Positions 2,160 through 34,797 of a stretch of DNA of 35,960 bases are shown here, piece by piece. The notes beneath the pieces are model-generated. The model did not search any database, was not told where the DNA came from, and saw only the letters and a list, made by a program, of their open reading frames with translations. Each line of letters begins with the position of its first letter. The stretch's first letter is position 1. Position numbers and translations under genes: made by a program. The DNA is from a virus: positions 1-35,960 of IMG/VR virus record IMGVR_UViG_3300009648_000002. The stretch is one strand, 5' to 3'.

Positions 2160-2453
2160 ATGAGAAATGATAAAAATGAGAGATTGTGGAACTTTAAGGA
2201 ATTAACCCACTACCTCGGCTACTCCATAAAAGTCAAACCCACCCTAGAAAAACTCGCTAAAAAGAAATACAGAGTCAGCCTAGCCGTCCTCGAAGAATTC
2301 CAGCCACACTTCACACCCACCACAGGTGGAATGAGCCAGACAACCATCGAAATAGGAATATACAGGACAAGGACAGAGTCAATCAAAAAGATCAAAGAGA
2401 TAATCGACACAATAACCATAGAAGACCTCCTCATAGGAGGGATGAAGCAGTGA
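2160..2453 (+). CDS. Hypothetical protein (97 aa)
   Basis: ORF with an RBS-like sequence; its stop overlaps the GTG start of the next gene. Confidence 0.45.
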   Translation: MRNDKNERLWNFKELTHYLGYSIKVKPTLEKLAKKKYRVSLAVLEEFQPHFTPTTGGMSQTTIEIGIYRTRTESIKKIKEIIDTITIEDLLIGGMKQ

Positions 2454-3214
2454 AAACCATAAGACTCACAACCGACAACCCAGCAGGCTTGCACAGCATA
2501 ACACACATGCTGACACAGATAAACGTCGACATTGCCACCATCCACGCCACACCAGAGGCCCTGACACTCGAAGGCATGGACGGGTCACACATCATCTACT
2601 ACAACATCAGGATCACACCAGACTTCTTCACAGACTACAAAGTCCCAGAGAACGAGGAACTATCAGTCCCAGTCGAAGAACTCAACAACATCCTCAAACT
2701 CACAGGGAGAAACAACACAATCACAATCACCAACCATACAGATGACGAGGAGAACACCACGTCCCTCATCGTCACCAGGTCCACAGAGAGAGACGAAACA
2801 AGGTTCACAATACTCTGCCCTGACATAGAATACGCCACCCCAACAGTCGACATGGGCACATTCGAATTAAATGCGACGATCACAGTCAACACAGACATGA
2901 TCACGTCATTCTTCAAAGACGCGGCCCTCACATCCTCTGACGCGATCGAGATCAAAGTCGATGAAGACTACCTGTACCTCATGACACCTGAGGATTACAA
3001 TGGATTCCATGTCATGTCCCGGCAGGGGCATGGTGAGAAAGTCTATGGGGAGTACTTAAGCCAATTCACGATAGAGAAACTCAAACCACTTATCCTCGAC
3101 GGATTTGAGACCGTTACAATCCACGTGGACAACGAGAAACCAATTAAATTAGAGTACTCAGACATTGGGGTTAGAGCGAACCTTCTCCTGGCCCCACGGA
3201 TCATAGGAGAATAA
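2450..3214 (+). CDS. pcn: DNA polymerase sliding clamp (PCNA) homolog
   Basis: 254 aa, typical PCNA length; C-terminal RANLLLAPRIIGE matches the archaeal PCNA C-terminus (compare P. furiosus ...RLTFLLAPRVEE); GTG start preceded by ggaggg. Confidence 0.7.
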   Translation: MKTIRLTTDNPAGLHSITHMLTQINVDIATIHATPEALTLEGMDGSHIIYYNIRITPDFFTDYKVPENEELSVPVEELNNILKLTGRNNTITITNHTDDEENTTSLIVTRSTERDETRFTILCPDIEYATPTVDMGTFELNATITVNTDMITSFFKDAALTSSDAIEIKVDEDYLYLMTPEDYNGFHVMSRQGHGEKVYGEYLSQFTIEKLKPLILDGFETVTIHVDNEKPIKLEYSDIGVRANLLLAPRIIGE

Positions 3215-20524: not shown

Positions 20525-23500
20525 ATGGATGAGATAAGTGTAATTGTAAGACTATTAGACGAGTTCAGTGGGAACCTGTCCTCAATGGTAACAACTGCAG
20601 AGTCAGCCCTTTCAAGCCTCGAGGCCACAGCAAACTCATCATCTTCATCATTATCTAAGATGGGTTCTGCAGCGACAGAGTCAGGTCAGGCGCTGAGTGA
20701 AGCTGCGAAGGGTGCTGAGGAACTTGGGAGCTCCACATCGGCTATAAATTCAGCGCCATTATCTGATGTCTCAGGCGCTGCGAATGAAGCGAGCAATGCG
20801 TTGAATGACACGAGCCAAAGCGCTGAGAATCTCTCCACGAGTCTGACGAATGTGAATGCGAAGGATCTTATCTCAGCATCATCCAGCACCCGTGAACTTG
20901 GCACAGAACTTGATAAAAGTGCTGAAGCGGCTGATAAATTAGCTGATAAAACAAAGGAGGCTAATGAGGAGGTTGAGAAGACCGGTAAGGATACTGTGGG
21001 CCTTGCAGCCATCACGGCGGCCCTGAGCACACTGACTGCTGGGATGGAGATGGCTGCAAGGGAAGCAACTAACCTGAACGCAACATTCCAGAAGATGGGA
21101 TCAGCCAAGATGCCAGAGCCAGAGGTAAGGAGCTTCGTAGCATCTCTCATCAGCGCTAGACTACCACTTGAGGATGTCCTCGCCTACCTGAAGGTTTTGA
21201 AACAGAGCGGACTTCAGAGTGCTGACTCGTTACGTCGTGGTGTGTATGCTCTGAATGACCTCAGCCTTGCTACAGGCGTGAATAGAGATGAAGTTATCAG
21301 GTTTACGAATTCATTGATTGTTATGGGTGTCCGCCTCGATGAGATCCCTAAACATTATAATGCTATCGCATATGCTCAGGCGAACATCGTGGGCGGTTTT
21401 GGTACGTATATCAAGTGGATGGAGAAGTTTGACGCGTCATTTAAGGAGTTAGGGCTCACAGTGGATCAGACTGTTGTCCTCATCGCTGCAGCGACGAAGA
21501 AGTTTGGTGGTGGTCGTGCAGCGTACACTGGTATGAGCCGGGCGCTCAAGGAGTGTAATGGAGATCTCTCAGTCCTCGAACAAAAGTTAGGCTTGCAGCC
21601 AGGGCTCCTCAGCCGAGCATCCGCGATGACATCAAAGTACTCTGGGAGTATCGAAAAGAAATCAAAGATAATGAAAGAGAATGTCACGATATATGAGCGC
21701 CTCCAGGAGGGTGTGGAGAAGCTCCGTATTCAGTTCAGCTGGCTAATCGCCCCGATCCTAAGTGTAGGGGGCCTGATTGGGGGTCTTGTGAGTACATATA
21801 TGGCCTATCAGACGTACCAGTCAGCTGTTGCTACTGCAGCGAACACTCAGACACTCGCAGAGATTGCGAAGGCAAAGGCACTCTTCACATCCACCGTGGC
21901 GACAGAGGCCCAGGCTGGTGCTGAGACAACAAAGACAGCAGCAACTGTAACATCCACTCTTGCGACTGTGAGGAACACTGTCGCGAACCAGGCCCTCATA
22001 TTATCTACGTATGGTTCAGCCGCGGCCTTGCAGACTGCGGTGGGGGCTGCGATGGCCCACGCGGGTGCTGTGGCGGTCGACACGGAGGCCCAGAATATGG
22101 GTATCCTTGCATCCCTCAGGTACACTGCGGCGCTGGCCTGGCAGCGGATCGTCACGGCTGCGACGACCGCCTACACGTATGCCCTCGCGGCGGCTCAGTG
22201 GGTCTGGAACGCGGCCCTCGCAGCCTCCCCGATCACATGGATCGTCTTAGCTGTGGCTGCTCTTGCAGCAGCCCTTGTGTATCTCTACTATAATTATCAG
22301 CCAGTTACGGATGCTGTGAACAAGTTTGCAGAAGGTCTTAAGTGGGTTGGTAGTGTTATCTATGGGTACCTCCTTGGAGCGTTTAATGCGCTGAAGGGTG
22401 CTCTCTCTGGGGTTGGTTCAGCGATTCAGGGGGCTCTTGGCGGTGCGTTGAACTGGATTATGGGTGGTCTCAAGCAATTAGCTGGTTTCATCTATTACGT
22501 CTTCTTCTCGTTCAAGTTCGTGGATGATATGGCCTCCAGGTTCGGTTTCCTGGGCCTGGCGATATCATTCGCCATCAATCCAATCAGGACAGTCATTGAA
22601 TACGTGAAACAACTGAAGATAGCCTGGGATTCATGGAGCAAGACCAGTGAGGCCCAGAGGGTCTTCGCCGAGCTGGGAGCGGCGTTCAATGAGCTGAAGG
22701 CTGCGTTCGGTGAGGTCTGGGCCGCCTTGCAACCGGTCTTCAAGGCACTCGGGGAAGCGTTCAATGAACTCAAGAACGCGTTGTTCCCGGTCCAGGAGAC
22801 CAGCAGGGCTGTGCAGTCCACTGGTAAGAGCGCCTCCTCCGCGTCCGGCCCGATACAGGTCTTCGTGGAGATCATCCGGGCCTTCGCATGGATCCTCACG
22901 AACGTGGTGGTCCCAGCCATCAGGATACTGGCGGAGTGGATCCATTACCTCGTCCCTGTCTTCCAGGCCATTGGATTCGCCATATCCGCAGTGATACAGG
23001 TGATGGTGTTCATCGGGCAGGTGGTCTGGAACGTGATCACATTCCTCACGAAATTCGGTCAGGCCCTCCAGATGCTGATTAGTGGCCATATCACCTTCTC
23101 CCAGTTCATGAGCGTAGTCTGGAACCTGTTCAAGGCCACGGTTGGCCGGATACTCCTCGAGGTGGTCCTCGCAGTGGGCAGGTTCGGGGCACAGTTGATC
23201 GGGAAAGCTGTGGCAGCGGCTTTAGGATTCGTTAACTCATTCCTATCATTCATAAGGAGCCTACCTGGACGTCTCTGGATTATGCTCCTCATCGTAGTGC
23301 AGAGGATCATCGCATGGGCAAACAAGCTCAGGGAGATGGCCCGTCAGGCTGCCTCTAACTTTGTCTCAAAATTTATTGGAGGAATCACTGGACTCCCTGG
23401 ACGTGTGGGTAAGGTGATGTGGGATGTGGTGAACGCGATTAAGAACAAAGTGAATGACGCCTATAACGCGGCGAAACAGTTCGGTCAGAACGTGTGGAAC

Positions 23501-24937
23501 GGTATCAAGAGTGCGCTGCACATTAAGAGTCCGAGTATCATCTATAAACAGATAGAAGCCGACACAGCCCTCGTGAATCAGCGTTTCAGGAGCATGGCCA
23601 GCTCTGCAAGGGCTGCTGCAAGCACGTACGCGAAAGGGATACGTGAGGGTATGGATATTGCAGGGACAAATGTGCCTATAGACTCCACCCTGAAATCTTC
23701 ACCTGTTGCGGGTGCTGTGGATGAAACAAGGAAGGCAATCACTGACATGCATGGTGTCACAAGGACAGGACTCACTAACATCGTGAATACATGGAGTGGC
23801 ATCGAGGAAACAACACAGAAGACGCGTGACTCCTATAATGCTTCAGTGGATATCACACGAAACGCTATGACCACAATGAGCACCACGACAAAGACCACAA
23901 TGACCCACATCAAGACAGGGTTCAACTCAATGAAAACTGAAGTAATCTCCGCCGCCAGCCGCACAAAGACAGGAGTCACCGGGCACCTGAACACACTCTC
24001 AACCAACATCCGCAGATTCTACAACCTCGTCATGAACCCAGGGGCCGGTGGCCCCGCAGGAGGGCCCTCAAGAAGGGTGTTCACAACTCCCAGCATCCCC
24101 AAGCTTGGATGGGGAGGCCCGCCACGAGCCATGACACCCACACCACCCCTAACAGGCCCCGAAGCCTATACTGCAAGGGGAGCGCGCCGCCTCCAAAAAA
24201 TCGCTGAGGAATACTACAAGATGCTATCCTGCCCATCATGCTATGGGGCTGGCTGGGATTACTCAACGAGGATGACAGGATGGGTGAACCGGACAGTTGA
24301 CAGGTACCGTGTAGGTTGGCTCCCAGGGATCACCCTGAAAGCCGGGGATTTCTCAACGTATCCTCCACGAGGACTTGCAGGGAACCTTGCAAGGTTCATC
24401 CCATTCATTTCAAGCGTGATAGGGCGAACACATTACAGGTTCTATTATGGTGATAGTGGCCTGTCACCGGCCGAACTCCTCAGGGTAGGCTCATTTAACT
24501 GTTATGATGGGGCCCGCCTTGTTGTCGCCTTCGCCAGGGCCTTCGGGCTCCCTGCAAGTATCCGTTGCGGCTTGAGCTGGGGAGGTATACCCCATTGCGC
24601 AGCAAATGTCGCGGGGATGTGGTTTGACACAACCGCCTTCCAGCAAGGATATGGCTGGACAAGTCCCCGGGTAACAGGGTATGGCGGCCCAACAAGCCCA
24701 GATATAGGTGTGGGCCCTGCAAGGATTGAGCACCATGCAGGGGACGTCCACATCAACGTCGAAGTCAATGGGGCCGCGGGATTGGATGAGAAGGAACTCG
24801 CGAAGAGGATAATGGAGGCGGTCACGGATAACAGGACAATCAAACGCCTCACAAGCCACCCCGTCTTCCTCCGCAGATTCGATGAGGAGTACGGGAGGTA
24901 CGCTGTGAATGATGCGAGGAGGACTGGTAGCAGATGA
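20525..24937 (+). CDS. Tail tape measure protein with C-terminal Pei-like cysteine peptidase domain
   Basis: 1470 aa; serine/alanine-rich helical N-terminus, central hydrophobic segments, position after the chaperone. Confidence 0.8.
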   Translation: MDEISVIVRLLDEFSGNLSSMVTTAESALSSLEATANSSSSSLSKMGSAATESGQALSEAAKGAEELGSSTSAINSAPLSDVSGAANEASNALNDTSQSAENLSTSLTNVNAKDLISASSSTRELGTELDKSAEAADKLADKTKEANEEVEKTGKDTVGLAAITAALSTLTAGMEMAAREATNLNATFQKMGSAKMPEPEVRSFVASLISARLPLEDVLAYLKVLKQSGLQSADSLRRGVYALNDLSLATGVNRDEVIRFTNSLIVMGVRLDEIPKHYNAIAYAQANIVGGFGTYIKWMEKFDASFKELGLTVDQTVVLIAAATKKFGGGRAAYTGMSRALKECNGDLSVLEQKLGLQPGLLSRASAMTSKYSGSIEKKSKIMKENVTIYERLQEGVEKLRIQFSWLIAPILSVGGLIGGLVSTYMAYQTYQSAVATAANTQTLAEIAKAKALFTSTVATEAQAGAETTKTAATVTSTLATVRNTVANQALILSTYGSAAALQTAVGAAMAHAGAVAVDTEAQNMGILASLRYTAALAWQRIVTAATTAYTYALAAAQWVWNAALAASPITWIVLAVAALAAALVYLYYNYQPVTDAVNKFAEGLKWVGSVIYGYLLGAFNALKGALSGVGSAIQGALGGALNWIMGGLKQLAGFIYYVFFSFKFVDDMASRFGFLGLAISFAINPIRTVIEYVKQLKIAWDSWSKTSEAQRVFAELGAAFNELKAAFGEVWAALQPVFKALGEAFNELKNALFPVQETSRAVQSTGKSASSASGPIQVFVEIIRAFAWILTNVVVPAIRILAEWIHYLVPVFQAIGFAISAVIQVMVFIGQVVWNVITFLTKFGQALQMLISGHITFSQFMSVVWNLFKATVGRILLEVVLAVGRFGAQLIGKAVAAALGFVNSFLSFIRSLPGRLWIMLLIVVQRIIAWANKLREMARQAASNFVSKFIGGITGLPGRVGKVMWDVVNAIKNKVNDAYNAAKQFGQNVWNGIKSALHIKSPSIIYKQIEADTALVNQRFRSMASSARAAASTYAKGIREGMDIAGTNVPIDSTLKSSPVAGAVDETRKAITDMHGVTRTGLTNIVNTWSGIEETTQKTRDSYNASVDITRNAMTTMSTTTKTTMTHIKTGFNSMKTEVISAASRTKTGVTGHLNTLSTNIRRFYNLVMNPGAGGPAGGPSRRVFTTPSIPKLGWGGPPRAMTPTPPLTGPEAYTARGARRLQKIAEEYYKMLSCPSCYGAGWDYSTRMTGWVNRTVDRYRVGWLPGITLKAGDFSTYPPRGLAGNLARFIPFISSVIGRTHYRFYYGDSGLSPAELLRVGSFNCYDGARLVVAFARAFGLPASIRCGLSWGGIPHCAANVAGMWFDTTAFQQGYGWTSPRVTGYGGPTSPDIGVGPARIEHHAGDVHINVEVNGAAGLDEKELAKRIMEAVTDNRTIKRLTSHPVFLRRFDEEYGRYAVNDARRTGSR
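24431..24730 (+). other. Transglutaminase-fold Cys-His-Asp peptidase domain, pseudomurein endoisopeptidase (Pei)-like, within the tape measure
   Basis: SFNCYDGARLVVAFARAFGLPASIRCG...GGIPHCAANVAGMWFDTT shows ordered Cys/His/Asp in a G.CyD.A...A.GiPaR context. Confidence 0.55.
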
Positions 24938-31668: not shown

Positions 31669-32052
31669 TTGATTGACGAAAAATATGATAGGATAAACAA
31701 GATAGCTGAATTCATCGATGGGTTGCAGGAGCAACTCGTTAAAGATGAAACATCATGGATATGGGTTGATATTGAGAAGGCAGTTCTCTACCAACTTGAT
31801 TACATGGAAATCGATAATATCCTCCGGCGTCTTGAAGAAGAAGCTCCATTGTTCTGGGATGGGACTATCCACCGATTGTGGTTCATCCACGCCGCGAACA
31901 GGGTCATAGATTATGCATACTTCCACGCAGACCTTGATGACATCGACATGATCCTCACATCATTGACTAACACGACGATGGAGATCCTGACAAGGAGCCT
32001 CAGGGAGGCCCCAGAGGATGTACTCTCTGAGTATGAAGTATGCATTGAATGA
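31669..32052 (+). CDS. Hypothetical protein (127 aa)
   Basis: ORF downstream of the tail fibre gene. Confidence 0.4.
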   Translation: MIDEKYDRINKIAEFIDGLQEQLVKDETSWIWVDIEKAVLYQLDYMEIDNILRRLEEEAPLFWDGTIHRLWFIHAANRVIDYAYFHADLDDIDMILTSLTNTTMEILTRSLREAPEDVLSEYEVCIE

Positions 32053-32070: not shown

Positions 32071-32805
32071 ATGATGAAGAAGGAGTACAGGTTAGATGAA
32101 TTCCTGGATATGAAGCGTCGCTGGGAGGCCTTCAGAATCCAGAAGGGCAGAAAACCTAACTACGTGACTGATAAGGCGGGTGAAAAGATCCCAAGAGACG
32201 TGTTTAATGATATGCTACTAAGATATGAACGCTTCGTTGCACTCAACCATAGAGATCCAGCCCTCATCAAAGTGAAGGGTAATACTGCTGATGACGGGTG
32301 GGTTACCACTGGGTATTTCCAGCAGGACTATCAGGACACGGATCACACCTGCGGCCCCAGCAGCCTCCAGATGGCTCTCTCTGCCCTTGAGTGCAAGATA
32401 TCGGAGTCGGAGTTAACAAAGGCGGCTGGGACAACATTGAAGGGAACAGACCATAAAGGTATGTTGAAGGCTATCACTTATGCAGCGAATAAGTGTAAAA
32501 AGAAACTTAAAGCCGAATTTAAAAAATTCAAGGCAATAGGATGGGATTCGATCATTAAACACGTTGAGGGTGGCGGGGAAGTCATAATACACCTTGTCAC
32601 CCGGCCAGGCCTTGACACGGATGTGAATGGTCGAGTGGTCTGGCGTGGAGCATTCGGTCACTATGTCTACCTCGTCGGCGTGAACAGGAAGAAGGGAGTG
32701 GTGAGGATAGCTGACCCAACGAAGGGGATTCGAGAGTTCACTCAAGGACAAGTAGTTCAGGCGATAAATAACCTGTCACAACCCAGCATACTCCTAATAA
32801 AGTAG
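32071..32805 (+). CDS. Papain-like (C39-like) cysteine peptidase, candidate cell-wall peptidase/lysin
   Basis: Q...DHTCGPSSLQMALSAL (Gln, then Cys in a CG.xSL context) with downstream GHYVYLVG...RIADPTKG (His, Asp), as in the peptidase C39 arrangement. Confidence 0.5.
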   Translation: MMKKEYRLDEFLDMKRRWEAFRIQKGRKPNYVTDKAGEKIPRDVFNDMLLRYERFVALNHRDPALIKVKGNTADDGWVTTGYFQQDYQDTDHTCGPSSLQMALSALECKISESELTKAAGTTLKGTDHKGMLKAITYAANKCKKKLKAEFKKFKAIGWDSIIKHVEGGGEVIIHLVTRPGLDTDVNGRVVWRGAFGHYVYLVGVNRKKGVVRIADPTKGIREFTQGQVVQAINNLSQPSILLIK

Positions 32806-32820
32806 TGGAGGCGGGTCTTA

Positions 32821-33594
32821 TTGGTAGATCAGTATGAACTCCACCATAAACGACGCCTTCATATCATACCACTCGGGGATCTTCATGTAGGGGCGAGGAA
32901 TTGCAATTATGACTATATTGAGTACGCGATTAGGACGATTAATCAATTGAAGGGCCCTAAACGTGTGTATATGATGGGCGACCTCCTGGAGACTGCTGAT
33001 AAACGTGTTGGTGGCAGTGTCTTTGAGCAGGACATGAGCCTCGATGATCAGGTATGCTTTATCAGGGATCTTTTGAAGCCAATAAGTGATGATATTGTTT
33101 TCTTCTGCAGGGGAAACCATGAGGAGCGCCTTATTAGGATGTATGACCTTGACCTGACCCGGCTGCTTGCTGAGGACTTTGGGGTGGGGTATGGGTATCA
33201 GTGCCATGACGAATTCCTTGTAAATGGTCGTCAGTTTAAGGTGATGGCGTATCATGGAAAGGGGAGTAGCAGGTCACCCTACCTCGCGTATGGGAAGGTG
33301 GTGAGGGAGCTTGGGAATTTTAAGGCTGACCTGTATCTTTACGGGCACCTCCATATGGCTGGGGCGTACAGGGAGTTCTATTGGAGTCCTGAGGGTGTCT
33401 CTCAGAGGGTTTATGTCCTGTCAGGTCATTTCATGAAGTACTGGTCAGGTTATGCTGAGGCTGGTGCCCTCACATATAGTCCAGAAGGGTTTGGTGTGTG
33501 TAACCTGAACAAGGACTGCTTTATCTCATATAACCCGTTCCATATACATGAAAGGAGGCCTGATCTATTAGTTTGTGGTGATGGTGTAGGATAA
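32821..33594 (+). CDS. Calcineurin-like metallophosphatase
   Basis: Ordered motifs GDLHVG, MMGDLLE, GNHEE and GHLH match the metallophosphoesterase signature; probable TTG start. Confidence 0.6.
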   Translation: MVDQYELHHKRRLHIIPLGDLHVGARNCNYDYIEYAIRTINQLKGPKRVYMMGDLLETADKRVGGSVFEQDMSLDDQVCFIRDLLKPISDDIVFFCRGNHEERLIRMYDLDLTRLLAEDFGVGYGYQCHDEFLVNGRQFKVMAYHGKGSSRSPYLAYGKVVRELGNFKADLYLYGHLHMAGAYREFYWSPEGVSQRVYVLSGHFMKYWSGYAEAGALTYSPEGFGVCNLNKDCFISYNPFHIHERRPDLLVCGDGVG

Positions 33595-33908
33595 TGATGA
33601 ATCGCTTCATGCAATTGAGAGGTAAACTGGACATCCCCTCATTAGATGAGATCACTGTAAGGTTTGAGAGAAAAAGATGCTTCCTCCCCACCGCCTACTG
33701 TTACCCTGAGATGAAGGTGATAGTCATCGAAGGGAACCCTGCAAGCCTGGAGAGGTATGGGCTCGCTGAACTCATCTGTCATGAATTGTCAGAATACGAA
33801 TACTATCATCAAAACAATAGCGAAAGCATGCATAATGACGATTTCAGATTGATAGAGTCAAAGTACAGGGAGATCATAGAGGAAATAATCAGAGAAGAAC
33901 ATGAATGA
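33594..33908 (+). CDS. Hypothetical protein (104 aa)
   Basis: ORF overlapping the phosphatase stop. Confidence 0.4.
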   Translation: MMNRFMQLRGKLDIPSLDEITVRFERKRCFLPTAYCYPEMKVIVIEGNPASLERYGLAELICHELSEYEYYHQNNSESMHNDDFRLIESKYREIIEEIIREEHE

Positions 33909-34023: not shown

Positions 34024-34797
34024 TCATTCTATCATATTCAAGAGTTTCTCACGGTATTCAGCACTCAGATTTCTCTTCATGATCACCTCCCTTATATTCT
34101 CACGAGTGATGGGAAGATCTTGCTTCTCAAGTATCTCGATCACTCCAAGAAGGGCGGGAGTCTTCTTCAACTCCTCTATCTCCTCATCAGAGAGTTCATC
34201 CTCAACGATCTCTGGAACGACCTGTGCGTCTACAGCGTCAGGCTCTCTCTTTGTCTTCGCGTTACGCTTCGTCTCAGAGTTACGCGTATTCCTCAGGATG
34301 TCAGTCTCCTCTGCAGGTGTAGGTGCATACCCTGCAAGGCTAACGATCCACCCTAGAGGCATCCTGAGGGCCTTGCTCACAGCCCTCGTCTCAGCCATTG
34401 ATTGAATAGCATATTCATCCCGCCCATACCAGTTCTTTTCGTAGCTACTGCAGATCATCTCCGCAGCACCTATCACTGTCCCATCAGAGCGTCTTGCAGT
34501 GGCCCTGGCCCTGTATATTATTTCGGGCTTTTTACGGCCACTATGAGGCTCCCTCTCAAGCCTCTCGGTCTCCTCAATGACTGAATAGACCCCGACAAGG
34601 AATCCAAGGGTTGTCCATCCCTCTACAGTGACATATTTTTTCCCTTTTATGTCCACGTAGAGGTTCGCGCCCTCTATTATATCTGTGAGTGTCCTGGATA
34701 TCTTCGTCGCGGTGTTAACCATCATCTCAGGTGATTCGAAGGCGAACAGGTTGGTGGTTCTTGGTTTCTCTGGCAGGTTGGGTTGGTTTGTCATCAT
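34024..34797 (-). CDS. Hypothetical protein (257 aa)
   Basis: Minus-strand ORF with RBS ggagggaataa-ATG; no catalytic motif recognised. Confidence 0.5.
   Translation of the reverse strand: MMTNQPNLPEKPRTTNLFAFESPEMMVNTATKISRTLTDIIEGANLYVDIKGKKYVTVEGWTTLGFLVGVYSVIEETERLEREPHSGRKKPEIIYRARATARRSDGTVIGAAEMICSSYEKNWYGRDEYAIQSMAETRAVSKALRMPLGWIVSLAGYAPTPAEETDILRNTRNSETKRNAKTKREPDAVDAQVVPEIVEDELSDEEIEELKKTPALLGVIEILEKQDLPITRENIREVIMKRNLSAEYREKLLNMIE

Follow-up and report, generated by a model that had tools for sequence, protein, structure and literature searches.

A gene for a C39-like cysteine peptidase, followed at once by one for a calcineurin-like phosphoesterase, raises two questions: do these genes form a lysis module, and does the peptidase represent a lysin type of its own? 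We analyzed this locus within a window of 35,960 nucleotides, which represents a complete viral genome (about 35.8 kb) assembled as a circle. The virus appears to be a siphovirus whose host is a pseudomurein-walled methanogen (Methanobacteriales). Its nearest isolates infect Methanothermobacter, and its own host probably belongs to Methanothermobacter or Methanobacterium, whereas PeiR, the enzyme to which we compare the lysin below, comes from a rumen Methanobrevibacter. PeiR is a C39-type pseudomurein endoisopeptidase that has reportedly been known since the M. ruminantium genome, and the primary paper on its structure is said to be that of Guo et al. (2026, Int J Biol Macromol). Our reading of the locus as a whole, which we hold with good confidence, is a PeiR-type endolysin and a separate metallophosphoesterase with a role in nucleic-acid metabolism.

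Domains and relatives of the predicted lysin

The reading frames of an earlier note, 32071–32805 and 32821–33594, both exist in the sequence. The first is preceded by a purine-rich ribosome-binding site, GGGGTGAG, and contains the following features:

32071..32805, + strand: predicted endolysin gene, PeiR-type (C39) pseudomurein endoisopeptidase; ATG start, 244 aa, pI 9.6
32083..32169, + strand: pseudomurein-binding repeat (PMBR) 1, residues 5–33; Pfam PMBR at residues 8–33
32185..32271, + strand: pseudomurein-binding repeat 2, residues 39–67; second PMBR stretch when Pfam scans residues 1–80 alone
32320..32802, + strand: C39 papain-like catalytic domain, residues 84–244
32332–32334, 32350–32352, 32659–32661 and 32713–32715, + strand: catalytic codons for Gln88, Cys94, His197 and Asp215, respectively

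The motifs quoted in the earlier note were all found, namely DHTCGPSSL (Cys94, with Gln88 upstream), GHYVYLVG (His197) and RIADPTKG (Asp215). Its proposal of a C39/papain-like cysteine peptidase with a Gln/Cys/His/Asp arrangement is borne out by Pfam, by conservation and by alignment to PeiR. Judged against the Pfam curated cut-offs, the HMM search that it suggested matched the 244-residue protein to both Peptidase_C39 (PF03412, 44.2 bits, cut-off 22) and Peptidase_C39_2 (PF13529, 37.4 bits, cut-off 24). Conservation of the catalytic residues, the lack of which would have counted against the proposal, gave the same picture: in an alignment of 24 sequences, no substitution occurs at Gln88, Cys94 or His197, and Asp215 is conserved in at least 90%. 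In a set of 27 sequences, Asp215 is invariant. His174 and Tyr198 are also invariant or at least 90% conserved.

Residues 5–67 comprise two pseudomurein-binding repeats, which had been overlooked previously. The Pfam PMBR score of 24.0 bits lies slightly below the gathering cut-off of 24.9. The N-terminus shares 51% identity with PMBR repeats 1–2 of PeiW (BLASTP, E-value 1e-18) and matches phrog_37889 (E-value 8.8e-15), and the repeats also align to those of PeiW and PeiP. The repeats resemble those of PeiW/PeiP and not those of PeiR. The AF2 model of the lysin (pLDDT 90) contains two strand-helix-strand units in this region, and PHROG assigns the protein to the pseudomurein-endoisopeptidase and endolysin families.

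We compared the lysin to known structures and sequences. PeiR, from the provirus phi-mru of Methanobrevibacter ruminantium (PDB 8Z4H), was the top Foldseek match of the AF2 model (8z4h_A, E-value 1.7e-14) and also the top match of the lysin family profile, over the full length and including both domains (E-value 3.7e-27). Gln88, Cys94, His197, Asp215, His174 and Tyr198 align with PeiR Gln84, Cys90, His181, Asp197, His162 and Tyr182, respectively. The roles of these PeiR residues, including substrate recognition by His162 and Tyr182, are described in PMC13642728. Both proteins, of about 230–245 residues, place two PMBR repeats before a C-terminal C39 domain, and both are encoded where the virion-structure genes end, but their overall identity is only about 20%.

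Among published proteins, the nearest relative is ORF27 of Methanobacterium virus PhiF3 (MN737622, "putative pseudomurein endoisopeptidase"), which is 49% identical over the full length and shares the domain order and the location after the tail genes. The lysin is also 32% identical to a protein annotated as "endolysin PeiR / peptidase_C39", and its homologs in cellular genomes are nearly all from Methanobacteriaceae. More distant C39 domains occur in "P210 CD" (PDB 22OC, 30% identity, TM-score of 0.77 normalized to target length) and in the lysin A proteins of Mycobacterium and Gordonia phages (about 26–44% identity). These proteins lack PMBR repeats, and the actinophage enzymes act on bacterial murein.

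PeiW and PeiP (psiM100/psiM2) have homologous PMBR repeats and the same expected substrate and lysis role, but their catalytic domain adopts the C71 transglutaminase-like fold rather than C39, and they carry four PMBRs compared to two in the window lysin. BLASTP found no similarity to PeiW outside the PMBR part. A PeiW/PeiP-type lysin (Peptidase_C71) was rejected on the lack of a PF12386 match, in a kind of scan in which PeiW itself scores 296 bits.

The gene follows those for the tape measure, distal tail and fibres, in agreement with the endolysin position noted earlier, and it is placed after the tail-fibre genes in every relative examined, including PhiF3, vir075 and L004–L008. Because the match to PeiR extends over sequence, fold, residues and gene position, we assign the 244-residue lysin, on sequence and predicted structure, to the known PeiR type, of which it is a new member. 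The suggestion of a distinct lysin type falls, since C39 pseudomurein endoisopeptidases had already been shown to be lytic, crystallized (8Z4H) and annotated in viruses. Lysis by PeiR was demonstrated experimentally in 2018, together with cleavage of Glu-gamma-Thr-pNA (PMC6189367), and PeiR-type lysins are routinely annotated in methanogen viruses (PMC11375127).

The earlier note had set the lysin apart from a Pei domain in the tape measure (20525–24937), which could not be confirmed. The tape measure has no Peptidase_C71 match, and its C-terminus matches Transglut_core only below threshold (22.7 bits, cut-off 23). Comparison with PeiW gave a BLASTP E-value of 0.003 over 66 residues, and a phmmer search of the PDB returned nothing relevant. 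A C71 assignment was rejected on the missing Peptidase_C71 match and on an hhalign probability of 1.8% between a 7-sequence tape-measure profile and PeiW. The C-terminus is a candidate transglutaminase-like Cys/His/Asp domain.

The metallophosphoesterase and its gene neighborhood

The genes that flank the lysin are as follows:

31669..32052, + strand: acidic 127-aa ORF (pI 4.3, no transmembrane segment), directly upstream of the lysin gene
32821..33594, + strand: calcineurin-like metallophosphoesterase; TTG start, 257 aa, predicted DP1/Mre11-like phosphodiesterase fold
33594..33908, + strand: 104-aa ORF; its start overlaps the phosphoesterase stop codon

The phosphoesterase gene is preceded by a GGAGG ribosome-binding site. 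All of the phosphatase motifs listed previously are present: GDLHVG (residues 19–24), GDLLE (53–57), GNHEE (98–102) and GHLH (175–178). The protein thus carries the superfamily motif set (DxH, GD, GNH(E/D), H and GHxH, with the metal ligands), and Pfam Metallophos (PF00149) scores 36.6 bits against a cut-off of 21.5. Asp20, His22, Gly53, Asp54, His100, His145, His176 and His178 are invariant among 40 aligned sequences, with identities to the query down to 25%, and Asn99 is invariant or at least 90% conserved. The phosphoesterase has neither a signal peptide nor a transmembrane segment.

Sequence searches of the PDB and NCBIfam with the phosphoesterase returned nothing, and of these searches only that by fold was informative. 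The fold is nuclease-like, with nucleases as structural neighbors (16–19% identity to PolD DP1 and Mre11/SbcD) and protein phosphatases ranked far lower. The protein also matches phrog_7339, "DNA repair exonuclease" (E-value 6e-28). We infer that it is a nucleic-acid phosphodiesterase or exonuclease, a putative nuclease assignment that draws on structural ranking at 16% identity. In our model it is an active two-metal enzyme from the DP1/Mre11 (nuclease) branch of phosphodiesterases. Nucleic acid is its most likely substrate, during replication, recombination or repair, and it forms a cassette with the 104-aa ORF at the late/replication gene boundary.

Several other assignments were rejected. 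An Mre11/SbcD nuclease proper would have a capping domain, which is absent, and a scan of window ORFs detected no Rad50/SbcC partner gene. A PPP-family (lambda phosphatase-like) protein phosphatase is contradicted by motif II, which does not follow GDxVDRG, and by the fold ranking. A defence-system component was set aside on the lack of a PADLOC match.

The 104-aa ORF is a constant companion of the phosphoesterase in this lineage, being kept directly 3' of it in L004, L033 and L030/L031, and has no family match in Pfam, PHROG, NCBIfam or PADLOC scans. In L030, the lysin gene is followed in turn by the phosphoesterase gene, a 105-aa ORF and the gene for a 646-aa protein, a homolog of which is encoded by the 596-aa ORF with which the window opens. 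The minus-strand 257-aa ORF (34024–34797) was rejected as the recombinase partner of an exonuclease, having no PDB, phage-database, NCBIfam or PADLOC match; its sole match is phrog_19042, the function of which is not annotated. A promoter and terminator scan gave counts at shuffle level and is not informative for an archaeal virus.

Distant phosphoesterase homologs sit in replication or nucleotide-metabolism modules. In vir249 the homolog adjoins the genes for PCNA and thymidylate synthase, and in Geobacillus phages it is next to those for DNA methyltransferases. One tentative extension, which we regard as doubtful, is that the phosphoesterase and its 104-aa partner are a stand-alone viral relative of the archaeal PolD DP1 proofreading exonuclease, working with viral PCNA or host PolD in the processing or proofreading of viral DNA. 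The genome encodes its own PCNA (2450–3214). The 257-residue protein is a stand-alone domain that lacks the OB fold of DP1 and its regions for DP2 binding. If true, this would be a kind of replication accessory as yet undescribed in archaeal viruses, and the position after the lysin would merely mark the late/early gene boundary.

That the protein is an anti-defence enzyme rather than a DNA exonuclease, degrading signaling nucleotides (for example, type III CRISPR cyclic oligoadenylates), is unlikely. The same genome contains a Csx16 homolog and type IV Cas genes, and thus the virus invests in CRISPR-related functions; the metallophosphoesterase fold also includes cyclic-nucleotide phosphodiesterases, for example Rv0805.

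We consider it highly unlikely that the two genes act as a lysis module, in which the phosphoesterase would aid the C39 peptidase by cleaving phosphodiester-linked wall polymers or by dephosphorylating the lysin or a host wall enzyme. The genes lie on the same strand with a 15-nt gap, in a shared operon, and the same arrangement is seen in four distinct genomes (the window, L004, L033 and L030/L031), with a looser pair about 2 kb apart in L032. However, the phosphoesterase is missing from at least nine lysin loci. The lysin occurs without it in PhiF3, L005, L006–8 and L013–17, and PhiF3 has two small hypothetical ORFs in its place. In vir249, vir520 and Geobacillus phages, the phosphoesterase homologs are found in the company of genes for DNA metabolism, and the stretches fetched from these genomes contain no C39 lysin homolog. 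PeiR lyses cells alone (PMC6189367), and the nuclease-like structural neighbors of the phosphoesterase and its lack of a signal peptide or transmembrane segment also argue against the module. Its membership in a lysis module, as put forward in the earlier note, is therefore not supported. Most likely, the phosphoesterase has a separate function and belongs with the DNA-handling genes of the virus.

Proposed action of the lysin

Pseudomurein is almost certainly the target of the lysin, because two PMBR repeats are combined with a full-length match to PeiR. We propose that the repeats would anchor the protein to the wall, and that in the C39 domain Cys94 would act as the nucleophile and His197 as the base, with Asp215 orienting His197 and Gln88 forming the oxyanion hole. 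Judging from PeiR, PeiW and PeiP, the enzyme would hydrolyze the Ala(Thr)-epsilon-Lys isopeptide bond in the peptide cross-link, leading to failure of the sacculus and release of virions. The scissile position is expected to hold Ala and not Thr, because the host is likely a Methanothermobacter or Methanobacterium.

The lysin has no signal peptide and no transmembrane segment, and it would therefore gain access to the wall through a membrane lesion. No holin adjoins the lysin, the 127-, 104- and 257-aa neighbors being without transmembrane segments. The 127-aa ORF, which is 69–99% identical in L004, L005 and L033 and adjoins the lysin there, was rejected as a holin by hydropathy.

A C39-like methanogen protein has been reported to be a glycosidase and not a peptidase (PMC13642728), and thus the substrate is not fixed by the fold alone. 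Nevertheless, it is extremely improbable that the C39 domain is a processing protease, acting on a double-glycine leader or on a virion or host protein, or a glycosidase of the A0A126R2S0 kind: although Pfam C39 was originally defined on bacteriocin-processing peptidases, PCAT1 and ComA are weakly matched by the lysin, and A0A126R2S0 demonstrates that a methanogen C39-like fold can be without peptidase activity, the lysin has no ABC-transporter part, fuses its C39 domain to wall-binding repeats, occupies the endolysin position and keeps Asp215, where A0A126R2S0, which also has a long loop 3, carries Asn at the third position of the triad (PMC13642728). According to the same source, PeiR cleaves analogues of the wall peptide and leaves double-glycine peptides uncut. 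A double-glycine C39 peptidase (PCAT/ComA) was rejected on the length of 244 residues, the lack of fused ABC domains and a TIGR01193 score of 17 bits against a cut-off of 524.

Implications for methanogen virus lysins

These results leave current understanding unchanged, while the window virus gains a confident endolysin annotation. Annotation of the phosphoesterase as a protein phosphatase or lysis protein should be avoided. PeiW, PeiP and PeiR have already been explored for methanogen lysis, protoplast preparation or anti-methanogen uses, and a C39 enzyme of this kind, probably thermostable, could serve the same ends. The PeiR (C39) lysin type is now found in relatives of Methanothermobacter phages, fused to PeiW-like wall-binding repeats. 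The combination of predicted PeiR-type catalysis with PeiW-like repeats is a clear case of domain shuffling between the two known Pei families.

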